A stretch of 64,000 nt of DNA, taken from contig OZ244626.1 in the NCBI GenBank assembly GCA_965218495.1, positions 2,352,196 to 2,416,195 of the forward strand, given 5' to 3'. The position numbers and the translations under genes were made by a program. Below, in pieces: positions 38,238 through 41,428 of this stretch; within the stretch, counting starts at the first letter, position 1, and each line of letters starts with the position of its first letter. Below the pieces are notes generated by a model. That model ran no database searches and had not been told where the DNA came from. It was given only the letters and a program-made list of their open reading frames with translations. The DNA is from Rhodothermales bacterium. GTDB lineage: Bacteria; Bacteroidota; Rhodothermia; Rhodothermales; Bin80.

Positions 38238-38449
38238 GGCGCGCGAGGTTACTGGTCGCAATAGCCACCCTCCAGGTAAAAGCAGGCCCCTTCCTATGGA
38301 GAGCACATGCTTCCCAGTCCCGTGCAACAAGCGTAGATACAGTCAGGATGTCCCTTTGGGCAGGCCGTCCAGGACGATCGTCGATCCTGATCATCGTCCT
38401 TCAGACTGGCTTCTGTCGGGTGAAGGACTGGTACAAGCAGCTCCACGAT

Positions 38450-38457
38450 CTGGTTCT
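38450..38457. repeat. Target-site duplication CTGGTTCT (left) of the IS256-like element
   Basis: CTGGTTCT abuts both ends of the element (38450-38457 and 40794-40801). Confidence 0.65.
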
Positions 38458-38472
38458 GGGATTGACCCATAT

Positions 38473-39741
38473 TTAGTTGGGAGGGGGATGTGCATAGGCG
38501 AATACGGTCTGCTGCCTGCGGCGTTCCACCTCACGTGTAAGGGCTGCTTCCATCGCTCTCAGATGCACAGGCTCCAATATGCGACTTAGCCTGGACTCGT
38601 AGTGCTTGAAGATGGCAGCGAACCAGCGGTGCCGTTGGTTCGTGGAGCGCCATCGTTTTACGTTGCGCGTGCGATGAGTAATGACGCTATTGAGGTTCTC
38701 GATGAGGTTACTGGTCTTGAAGCTGCGCTGGAGGGTCTCATGCAGTGGTAGTCGGAGCACCGTAAGCGTTTCGTGCAGTCCTTCGCGCAGGCTGGCGGCC
38801 GCGCGCGGTTGCCCAGGCTGCAGGTCGTCGTGGATAGCAACAAGCGCTTTGCGCGCACGCTCATAGTCCGGCTGATCGTAGGCATCTTGAAGCCGGCCTT
38901 TTGCGCGCTCGGCTGTGCCCTTCTGCTTGGTGTGCTGCACCACGTTCTCGCGCTTGTGCCACTGACACCGCTGGATGACCGCGTGATCGCCAAACACATG
39001 CTGCACCGCCTTGCGCAGCCCCTTGCTGCCGTCGATGATCACCAGGATCCCGCCGGCATAGGAGAACCCGCGCTGCACCAGGTTCTCCAGCAAAGCGGTC
39101 GCTTTGTCACTGTTCTCGGTGGTGCTTTCGATGTAGCCTAACACGTGCTTCTTGCCTGTACGGGTGACCCCCAGAGCGAGGATCATCTGCACACCCTTCA
39201 GGCACTTGCCATCTATCAACAAGGCCACATACTTCTCCTGATCCAGCCGGCTGGACTCAAACTCCTCTAGTGCCTGCGTGGTAGTGGTCTCGAACATGCG
39301 AGCAACGCTGCTCTGGCTCAGTCCCATACAGTCGGCAAACTCGCCGGCCACGTCCTTGTAGTCGCGCTGCGAGACCCCCGAGAGCAACAGTGCCGTGAGC
39401 TTCTCAAGCTGCTTGGGATCCCGCTGGTGCAGCAACTGGTAGGTCTTCAGCGGCACTTCCTTGCCCGTGTTGGTGTCACGCACCCGAGGAACCGATATCT
39501 GAATACGCCCCGTACCGTAGACAATAGAGCCTGGATTGGTGCCCCAGCGCTGATAGCCGTTCTTGTTGACGGTGCCCCGCTTGCCACACAGCTGCGTCAC
39601 TTCGGCCTCTATAGCCTGCATAGCCATCGCTTCATACCGCTCTGGGAGCTCGCGCAGGAGCTGGGCCAAGGCAAGCGGGTCGGTCGCAGCCAGACGCTGG
39701 CAGAGTGCGGCAATGGGTTCGTCGGAGGTCTGTGCTTTCAT
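38473..39741 (-). CDS. IS256 family (Mutator-type) transposase
   Basis: 422-aa ORF with DDE contexts LLIDG, VIIDGSKGLRKAV, QRCQWHK and TSNLIENLNS. Confidence 0.85.
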   Translation of the reverse strand: MKAQTSDEPIAALCQRLAATDPLALAQLLRELPERYEAMAMQAIEAEVTQLCGKRGTVNKNGYQRWGTNPGSIVYGTGRIQISVPRVRDTNTGKEVPLKTYQLLHQRDPKQLEKLTALLLSGVSQRDYKDVAGEFADCMGLSQSSVARMFETTTTQALEEFESSRLDQEKYVALLIDGKCLKGVQMILALGVTRTGKKHVLGYIESTTENSDKATALLENLVQRGFSYAGGILVIIDGSKGLRKAVQHVFGDHAVIQRCQWHKRENVVQHTKQKGTAERAKGRLQDAYDQPDYERARKALVAIHDDLQPGQPRAAASLREGLHETLTVLRLPLHETLQRSFKTSNLIENLNSVITHRTRNVKRWRSTNQRHRWFAAIFKHYESRLSRILEPVHLRAMEAALTREVERRRQQTVFAYAHPPPN

Positions 39742-40727
39742 GAGGGTAGGCGGCTGGATAGGGCTTCACGAAGATCTGGAAGATACGAGGCAAAGGCCAT
39801 GCGCCGCAGGCCCACCTCGAGTTCCAACAACGCCAGGGCAATGCGCCCCAGGCGCTGACGTACGCTCCCTGGGGGTACGCACGATTGCAGCTTCTGACCC
39901 AGGGTGTCCACGCTGTGCAGCACGCGCAAGCCGCGGTCTACCGTCAGTAGCAGCCCCGTCCGCTGAATGGTGAGCGTCTCCTGAAGACCCTCCAGAAGCA
40001 CGTGGGCGGCCGAACGGTTCACACGCTGCAAGTCTGCGTGAATCTCCAGGAGCGCAGTCTCGGCCCGCCTCGCGTCCAACAGTTGCCACGCTTGCCGCAA
40101 TCGGCTGCGAAAGACGGCCTGCGATGCCTCCGGCAAGCCGTTGATCACCTGGCGAAGCTTCGTGCTCAAGCAGCGCTGTATGGCTACGCGCGGACCCAAA
40201 GTGGTCTCTACAGCCCCTTGCATACCTGTGCCACTAGCTAAAATGCAGAGCAAGCCCGCATCCACACAGAGTCCACGCGTTACCAGACTCTGCAGAAACT
40301 CCTGCAAACGGGCGACATCCTCCGGTGCGCAGGCCACCAGGCCCAGGATGCGACGATGGCCGCTCAACGTAACGCCCACGCAAAGAGTCAGACGTACACC
40401 AATGACGTACAAGCTCTTCAGCCATAGCGCTACCACAGCCTCATCAGATAAACTGCGCGTCTGCAAGTATTCCCATGCTTCATCGAAGCGAACGCCATCG
40501 TCCGGGGCAGCCTCCGCTCGTTCGGGTGCAGCCATGGACGCTGGCTCACTGCGGCCAGGCTGCGCAGCAGCTGCGTTCTCCTGTGGCAGCAACTCGCCAG
40601 CCAGCATCTGCAGAATGCTGGCATAGTGTCGCATCAGGTGCAAACGTACCGCTTGGCCTGTGCTCTGCGAGCCGCCTGATGGCGCGTCAGAGCACGCTTC
40701 AGGCGGCAACGACAAGTGGGTATTCAT
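39738..40727 (-). CDS. Divergent IS256-transposase paralog lacking the DDE residues
   Basis: 329-aa ORF, collinear with the downstream transposase core. The catalytic contexts instead read LWLKS, CILASGTGMQGAV, QRCLSTK and VLHSVDTLGQ. Confidence 0.65.
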   Translation of the reverse strand: MNTHLSLPPEACSDAPSGGSQSTGQAVRLHLMRHYASILQMLAGELLPQENAAAAQPGRSEPASMAAPERAEAAPDDGVRFDEAWEYLQTRSLSDEAVVALWLKSLYVIGVRLTLCVGVTLSGHRRILGLVACAPEDVARLQEFLQSLVTRGLCVDAGLLCILASGTGMQGAVETTLGPRVAIQRCLSTKLRQVINGLPEASQAVFRSRLRQAWQLLDARRAETALLEIHADLQRVNRSAAHVLLEGLQETLTIQRTGLLLTVDRGLRVLHSVDTLGQKLQSCVPPGSVRQRLGRIALALLELEVGLRRMAFASYLPDLREALSSRLPS

Positions 40728-40793
40728 TGCTGGGTTGGGTTAGTGACCGGGGATGTTCAATTATCCCTCCCCAACTAGCTATGAATCAATCTC

Positions 40794-40801
40794 CTGGTTC
40801 T
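40794..40801. repeat. Target-site duplication CTGGTTCT (right)
   Basis: See 38450-38457. Confidence 0.65.
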
Positions 40802-41428
40802 GGACGACTCTAGTCCACCTTGGGGGAATTCCTGCCACTGTTTGCTCAGCGTTATGGCACCCTCACCCGGAGCAGTGTTGGGCAAGAGTCAAAACCCCGA
40901 GGACCTATCCTTCGTGCTGAAGGGAAGTAATTCAGGTACAGCGGTCAACGCAGGAGTAAACCGCGGAGTAGAGACGGTCTGCAAAAAAGCTACGGGGACC
41001 TAATCGCAGTAGAAGCTCGCCCAGCGAACCGGCGGGAATATCCGGGCCACCCGGACGGTACCGGTCACGCGCTTGAAACGTGCGCCTTAGCGACATGCAC
41101 ATGCGTCCGGCACGGCTACGCCGAGTCACATGGCCGGATAGGCATCAGGCGGGCATTCGGATCGCGCCTGCGGTGCGGGCACTTGGCCCTCCGTCACTTA
41201 TTCCCGAATTCGGAGGGTGCAGAGCTACTCCATTGCAATGGTACGGTGCAGCATGCCGATTTAGAGATGCATACGGTTTGGTCATGGACGCCTTGGCTGG
41301 CAGGCATGCGCTACTGCTGCGACTCAAAAGGCCGATCAATTGTTGCAGGCTGCTTGTTCCGCCGGGCAGGGCTCAACTTTTTTGCGCGCGATTCGTTATC
41401 TGCGTCTTCCTTCCGATCACACCAGTCT

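Follow-up and report, generated by a model that had tools for sequence, protein, structure and literature searches.

We describe here an insertion sequence (IS) with two transposase-like genes, found in a 64,000-nucleotide stretch of the genome of a Rhodothermales bacterium (assembly GCA_965218495.1, contig OZ244626.1, positions 2,352,196 to 2,416,195 of the forward strand); this whole stretch is called the window, and its numbering is used unless another sequence is named. Our main finding is that this element belongs, as an active member, to a separate subgroup of the IS256 family whose elements have two genes. Its downstream gene, tnp, encodes the transposase, and its upstream gene, orfA, encodes a paralog of that transposase which is predicted to be catalytically dead and which is maintained by selection. 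We tentatively propose that OrfA is a non-catalytic partner of Tnp, acting effectively in cis and needed for productive transposition, a reading to which we give a little less than an even chance. The element is laid out as follows.

38458-40793, genes on the minus strand: whole element, 2336 bp, of the lineage called L1 here; bounded by inverted repeats (IRs) and an 8-bp duplication, with an empty site in genome G160
38450-38457: target-site duplication CTGGTTCT, copy 1; from direct-repeat detection, single at the empty site
40794-40801: target-site duplication CTGGTTCT, copy 2; from direct-repeat detection, single at the empty site
38458-38486: terminal IR at the tnp-distal end, GGGATTGACCCATATTTAGTTGGGAGGGG reading inward
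40765-40793: terminal IR upstream of orfA, GAGATTGATTCATAGCTAGTTGGGGAGGG reading inward on the minus strand
38473-39741, minus strand: tnp, IS256/Mutator-type transposase of 422 aa with the DDE catalytic triad; from the open reading frame (ORF) and family models
39738-40727, minus strand: orfA, transposase paralog of 329 aa, lacking the DDE residues, the N-terminal DNA-binding (NDB) domain and the helix-turn-helix (HTH); from the ORF, alignment and model
39738-39741, minus strand: ATGA, in which the orfA stop overlaps the tnp start; from the ORF calls and the sequence

An earlier first-pass annotation of the window, made from the letters alone, had placed both ORFs within one pair of IRs and one 8-bp target duplication, and this is what we found. 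The IRs are 29 nt long and imperfect, with 22 of 29 positions matching by hand count (a repeat-finding program scores the same repeats as 27 nt at 78%), and further L1 copies in the same genome terminate at identical bases. In G160, a genome of the same genus whose flanks are 97-98% identical, both flanks are joined and CTGGTTCT is present once. This empty site means that the 8-bp repeat is not due to chance, and the insertion is recent and real. The mobile unit is IR, orfA, tnp, IR, and it inserts with 8-bp duplications. An arrangement of two nested or adjacent ISs was considered and rejected, as there is one IR pair, one duplication and a clean empty site, and the unit has been copied about 50 times in a sister lineage.

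The downstream protein had been taken for a normal IS256/Mutator transposase, and by its sequence it is indeed a complete, canonical one. It scores above the curated cut-offs of Pfam Transposase_mut PF00872 (7.9e-40, 137 bits, cut-off 21) and of the NCBIfam IS256 family transposase model NF033543 (4e-65, 220 bits, cut-off 150). Its AlphaFold model (mean predicted local distance difference test score, pLDDT, 84) has N-terminal helices at residues 10-20 and 22-52, a beta-hairpin at 63-89 and helices at 99-162, followed by an RNase H core with a helical insertion formed by helices 260-342, between the second catalytic aspartate (D2) and the catalytic glutamate (E). IS256-family elements are typically about 1.2-1.5 kb long with a single transposase ORF, and they move in a copy-out/paste-in mode by way of a DNA circle. 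The family models, the DDE and CxxH residues, the helical insertion and the imperfect IRs with an 8-bp duplication all place the element in this family; it departs from it in having two ORFs in 2336 bp, and 2665 bp in the sister lineage. The four catalytic contexts of Tnp, and the substitutions that the first-pass annotation had listed for OrfA, which are exact, are given in pairs below.

39208-39222, minus strand: Tnp motif LLIDG, holding D177 (D1)
40413-40427, minus strand: OrfA motif LWLKS, counterpart of LLIDG; D177 replaced by K104
39019-39039, minus strand: Tnp motif IIDGSKG, holding D237 (D2)
40224-40244, minus strand: OrfA motif ILASGTG, counterpart of IIDGSKG; D237 replaced by A164
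38953-38973, minus strand: Tnp motif QRCQWHK, with C259/H262
40158-40178, minus strand: OrfA motif QRCLSTK, counterpart of QRCQWHK; H262 replaced by T189, C186 kept
38689-38709, minus strand: Tnp motif NLIENLN, holding E348 (E)
39897-39917, minus strand: OrfA motif HSVDTLG, counterpart of NLIENLN; E348 replaced by D274

The similarity of the upstream ORF to Mutator-type transposases, on which the earlier interpretation depended, is significant by family models, alignment and fold search alike. OrfA matches Transposase_mut at 3.2e-11 and the NCBIfam IS256 model at 2.2e-21, in the core region only, and it is collinear with the catalytic core of Tnp, aligning to residues 156-351 with 33% identity (E 2e-28). 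Its AF2 model (pLDDT 84) consists of a long helix at residues 22-46, a disordered Ala/Pro-rich linker at 47-73 and a helix at 77-90, past which lie the RNase H strands and the helical insertion domain. A fold search with this model gave as best matches in the Protein Data Bank (PDB) the structures 6xgx, 6xg8 and 6xgw of ISCth4 TnpA (E about 2e-9, TM about 0.55), which were recovered by fold only: a PDB sequence search with the OrfA profile returned nothing meaningful.

That the N-terminal DNA-binding region is missing, as was also claimed earlier, is seen in both the alignment and the models: the beta-hairpin DNA-binding domain is gone and the HTH region is reduced to its last helix. Moreover, the basic loop (R/K)VK(R/Y)W that follows the catalytic E in transposases is deleted in OrfA's subgroup, and the median isoelectric point and net charge of the DDE-less proteins are 8.0 and +2, against 9.5 and +14 for the transposases. 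Helix 22-46 corresponds by alignment to the second helix of the N-terminal dimerization domain, and the N-terminal helix of OrfA has 11 of 21 residues in common with the helix that precedes the DNA-binding domain of P0006, the nearest canonical transposase; a helix of the dimerization domain thus appears, from alignment and model, to be retained. The DDE-less proteins have invariant motifs of their own, and their insertion domain is well conserved. OrfA is predicted to have lost catalysis and the known DNA-contacting parts and to have kept the protein-protein parts and the insertion domain.

The genome (4.61 Mb in one contig, 58.6% GC) holds three related lineages of such elements, at least two of which also coexist in a sister genome. 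A count of copies, suggested in the first-pass annotation, gave for L1 one intact copy, the element at 38458-40793, together with two interrupted copies and several end fragments. In the sister lineage (L2), OrfA and Tnp both show about 50% identity to their L1 counterparts. Its elements are 2665 bp long with similar ends and number about 50, of which 35 are full-length and about 14 are interrupted. Each of the 35 intact copies has orfA (322 aa) and tnp (434-442 aa) joined by the ATGA overlap; coding indels are in-frame, except for one near the tnp C-terminus that yields the variants of 434 and 438 aa. Exact 8-bp duplications, which vary in sequence, flank at least 15 copies, and several more are masked by alignment offsets. 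The third lineage is decayed in this genome and intact in the sister genome, with the gene order unchanged.

Selection was measured on the 35 intact L2 copies, using codon-aware ratios of nonsynonymous to synonymous rates (dN/dS) and counting polymorphisms against the consensus. The dN/dS of orfA, another quantity that the first-pass annotation had proposed to measure, was 0.43, and that of tnp 0.31, while the non-coding ends diverged by 6-7% compared to 2.4-3.0% for the coding parts. We counted 63 nonsynonymous (N) and 53 synonymous (S) polymorphisms in orfA, where the neutral expectation is 74% N (binomial p 3e-6), and 66 N and 67 S in tnp (p 8e-11 versus neutral); the two genes do not differ in these counts (Fisher p 0.65). 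Between genomes, orfA of the L1 element compared with two sister-genome copies showed 4 N to 18 S and 14 N to 15 S changes. Purifying selection acts on the OrfA sequence about as strongly as on tnp, and the frame is open and likewise constrained in further copies, in the other lineages and in other genomes.

The two interrupted L1 copies (G000:C1:1646845-1651861 and 1770001-1775107) are each split by an insert of about 2.7 kb, near the tnp 3' end in one and inside orfA in the other. An L1 deletion derivative of about 330 bp (G000:C1:4099299-4099629), with both ends kept (about 70 bp on the orfA side and about 224 bp on the tnp side), looks like a non-autonomous copy of the type of miniature inverted-repeat transposable elements (MITEs). 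The L2 lineage, of which locus L025 (G000:C1 3912685-3915349) is an example, makes up about 3% of the 4.6-Mb genome, and the load is similar in a genome of the same genus. Interrupted L2 loci lie at G000:C1:640887-644310, 707509-713125, 979144-984772, 2946320-2954006 and 3886915-3888077. At least four L2 copies share one interruption point within tnp, at about position 1501-1504, with an insert of about 2.95 kb in two of them; either the nested composite was itself copied or the site is a strong insertion hot spot. Secondary insertions in L2 copies are too few for a comparison of how often orfA and tnp are hit.

The two L1 ORFs, of 329 and 422 aa, share the four bases 39738-39741, as had been noted, and the first-pass annotation had called the pair translationally coupled. 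The ATGA overlap occurs in every orfA-tnp ORF pair of L1 and L2 in this genome, and a 4-nt overlap is also found at loci L095 and L100/L101. The overlap does not extend to the whole family: the decayed third-lineage copy of the same genome has a gap of 9 nt, and other lineages have gaps of 9-66 nt in place of the overlap. Co-transcription of the gene pair is the predicted conserved feature, with coupling of the overlap type in some lineages only. An OrfA-Tnp fusion by programmed frameshifting was rejected: each protein has its own complete homolog of the catalytic core, which makes the two paralogs rather than halves, no slippery run is seen at the junction, and junctions range from a 4-nt overlap to a 66-nt gap.

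The same two-ORF arrangement was also sought in other genomes. Of 25 genomes from the family to which the window belongs, a single family within the Rhodothermales, 14 contain full-length DDE-less matches. None occur in the other 176 sampled genomes of the order, nor in the rest of a 400-genome sample of the phylum; matches outside the family begin at profile position 77-80, which marks them as ordinary transposases. A plasmid collection held no full-length relative of OrfA, its only hits being in the core, to ordinary IS256 transposases, with identities of no more than 35%. In protein databases, a word-indexed search gave only 8 relatives. An exhaustive profile search covered 1.84 billion representative proteins, and among its top 157 matches, which we examined, were about 30 DDE-less representatives of 320-360 aa. 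D2 and E are missing from all of them: in the subgroup that includes OrfA, D1, D2, H and E are all lost, while the other subgroup lacks D2 and E but retains D1 and often CxxH. The database members all derive from metagenomes or metagenome-assembled genomes, and every source leaves the DDE-less proteins unnamed.

Wherever the contig gave context, the DDE-less gene is directly followed by a full transposase gene on the same strand (L078, L083, L087, L089, L093/094, L095, L096, L097, L099 and L100/101), across a 4-nt overlap or a gap of 10-66 nt, with the exception of L093/L094, where the gene junction is perturbed and the downstream gene seems to be broken or is separated by about 400 nt. Conversely, for all 13 members of the clade of partner transposases, as far as the contig reaches, the gene immediately upstream is a DDE-less one; two apparently 'solo' transposases of this clade do have the upstream gene, and a third is identical to a known partner. 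P0006 belongs to a single-gene element with similar ends. Two-gene elements in metagenome contigs often adjoin a protein with AAA_16/AAA_22 domains or DDE_Tnp_1 transposases (L089 2944-4155, L096 5119-6927, L100 4572-6275), which suggests that they reside in IS-rich regions.

A tree of 62 proteins (IQ-TREE quick search, LG+C20) groups the 18 DDE-less proteins in one clade, with a support of 100 in the Shimodaira-Hasegawa-like approximate likelihood ratio test (SH-aLRT), and places the partner transposases within one clade of 13 (SH-aLRT 95). The branching is matched in both clades: the L1 element joins the sister lineage and L095, L096 goes with L078/L083, and L094, L097 and L089 are separate from L087. 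Matched pairs are also separated by similar path lengths in the two clades, and orfA and tnp have co-diverged down to about 35-50% identity. Taken together, the tree indicates a single ancient duplication, followed by what would be a long co-inheritance at similar rates of change.

orfA arose once from a transposase of the same kind and has since co-diverged with its partner tnp. In the mechanism that we favour, OrfA would be translated from the same mRNA just ahead of Tnp, translation of the L1 tnp probably following by termination-reinitiation at the ATGA, and would bind Tnp by way of the dimerization helix that it retains, the insertion domain, or both. It would serve, effectively in cis, as a non-catalytic, non-DNA-binding subunit required for productive transposition, be it as an assembly aid, a stabiliser of Tnp or a bridge between Tnp units, and not as a mere brake. 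We infer the interaction, its stoichiometry and the direction of its effect; the main argument that OrfA would be needed in cis is that orfA, in a genome with about 50 copies, is constrained like tnp and was never seen lost in the partner-transposase clade. Perhaps, and we hold this somewhat less firmly, the subgroup's transposase is an obligate heteromer in which a catalytic protein is joined by a pseudo-enzyme paralog from the same element. Several points weigh against a required partner. In the asymmetric dimer of ISCth4, a single-ORF element of 1503 bp whose domain roles are known from structure, one protomer binds the end with its N-terminal domains, two non-catalytic loops of its catalytic domain shape the tip, and the other protomer supplies the active site (PMC7780238). 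OrfA has neither the DNA-binding domains nor the active site that these two roles require, so an ISCth4-style 1:1 dimer of OrfA and Tnp should be inactive, which points to inhibition. The selection counts come from copies with both frames intact only, an ascertainment bias; copies inside one genome are non-independent, and gene conversion could mimic constraint. The tree, for its part, carries SH-aLRT support only and its root was not inferred.

The first-pass annotation had suggested either an element-encoded regulator or an architectural subunit of the transpososome, and these are the two leading readings; the evidence favours a cis-acting partner over a pure inhibitor. As an inhibitor, OrfA would be dominant-negative like Inh of Tn5/IS50: made in amounts at least equal to those of Tnp, it would titrate Tnp into dead heterodimers, keeping transposition low and self-limiting as copy number rises. 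We regard this as a doubtful but substantial possibility. The domains that OrfA has lost, which include parts used by both ISCth4 protomers, are exactly those expected to be missing from a poison subunit, its upstream position and the ATGA coupling would fix the OrfA:Tnp ratio at 1 or more, and there is a precedent in the Tn5 inhibitor, which is produced more abundantly than the transposase and dimerizes with it into an inactive complex (PMC4265352). However, among about 35 copies orfA is as constrained against missense change as tnp is, when the loss of one of about 50 genes would cost little: a trans-acting inhibitor gene in any one of these copies should drift by missense change, and a cis-acting one should be lost by element-level selection, yet orfA is kept, and its loss was never found in the partner-transposase clade. 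The elements are also among the most successful ISs of their genomes: this genome has about 50 copies, and seven others have at least 5 to 11 scored copies each. OrfA might instead act in specificity or competition between co-resident lineages, through poisoning of rival transposases, immunity or target choice, without being a core part of the transpososome. The coexistence of three related lineages in one genome and of at least two in the sister genome would suit such a role, and OrfA and Tnp co-diverge lineage by lineage, as lineage-specific recognition would predict; we consider it unlikely, as no direct evidence speaks for it and it is more complicated than either a partner or an inhibitor. 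Finally, orfA could be what is left of a tandem or nested IS copy, a functionless and decaying relic whose frame is held open only through the translational dependence of tnp, since with the ATGA overlap a nonsense mutation in orfA would have a polar effect on tnp. But polarity guards against stops and not against missense changes, and the dN/dS of about 0.4 (p 3e-6 versus neutral), the 4 N versus 18 S changes between genomes, the retention of orfA in many lineages despite gaps of 9-66 nt, the family-specific invariant motifs, the confidently predicted fold and the co-divergence with tnp to about 35-50% identity all stand against it; this explanation is strongly disfavoured, and we give it hardly any chance.

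As for the insertion site, the element occupies a divergent intergenic region, window 38331-41182. A minus-strand gene with a 402-aa ORF ends at 38330, 127 bp from the element, and a DUF58 gene that starts a Bat-type operon (ORF from 41183) lies about 390 bp from it; the sister genome keeps the spacer between these two genes uninterrupted. The insertion may affect the expression of either neighbour. One further feature lies at the orfA side of the element.

40760-40789, minus strand: sigma-70-like match TTGATT-18-GATAAT inside the IR, facing orfA (9/12)

Two such sites were found where 0.5 were expected, by match to a consensus that may not be the host's; the same consensus scan gave no match between orfA and tnp.

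A natural and highly successful subgroup has thus long carried a dead, DNA-binding-less transposase copy. The OrfA/Tnp pair offers an experimental handle on which parts of the second chain matter, and on how the transpososome is assembled and controlled. If the transposase is a heteromer, the asymmetry of two identical IS256 chains would be partly hard-wired into two genes, to our knowledge the first such case inside a mobile bacterial IS. For annotation, both genes match the same models, and pipelines are expected to call both transposase genes or pseudogenes; transposases would then be overcounted and the two-gene family missed.

Second products that modulate or assist the transposase are known from other two-gene ISs, such as the OrfA of IS3 and IS1 and the IstB of IS21. 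The OrfA of IS3/IS1 is the DNA-binding N-terminal part of the transposase, made without frameshifting, whereas the OrfA described here is a full-length, dead paralog of the catalytic core without the DNA-binding part; IstB is an AAA+ ATPase unrelated to the transposase, unlike our transposase-derived OrfA. Inh of Tn5/IS50 lacks the N-terminal DNA-binding end, and OrfA resembles it in having no DNA-binding domains and keeping a dimerization-type helix. The two differ in that Inh is translated from within tnp itself and keeps the catalytic residues, while OrfA is a separate, anciently diverged gene product with 33% identity to its partner and its active site removed, for which inhibition is hypothetical. 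A parallel in terms of a required dead paralog is offered by Paramecium, where the PgmL partners of PiggyMac are paralogs of a DDE/DDD transposase, without a catalytic site, that bind the catalytic paralog and are needed by it, with an architectural role proposed (PMC6143343). Like them, OrfA is a paralog of a catalytic protein that has lost the catalytic residues (K104/A164/D274); PgmLs are domesticated eukaryotic host genes of the piggyBac superfamily, whereas the OrfA pair resides in a still-mobile bacterial IS, and binding to Tnp and a requirement for it are predictions in the case of OrfA. In a survey of prokaryotic Mutator-like transposases, the only two-ORF cases reported were frameshift halves of one transposase, from the ISMich2 group (PMC3942029), and our literature search, which had ISfinder outside its scope, found no published two-gene IS256-type element with an inactive paralog. 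With IS256 and ISCth4 the present element shares a Mutator-type DDE transposase, the C/DxxH motif and the helical insertion domain, with the IS256 family IRs of about 29 bp and 8-bp target duplications, and with ISCth4 TnpA the fold to which OrfA was matched. What sets this subgroup apart from both is its length of 2.3-2.7 kb, its two genes, and the nature of the extra conserved one, a catalytically dead transposase paralog stripped of its DNA-binding domains.

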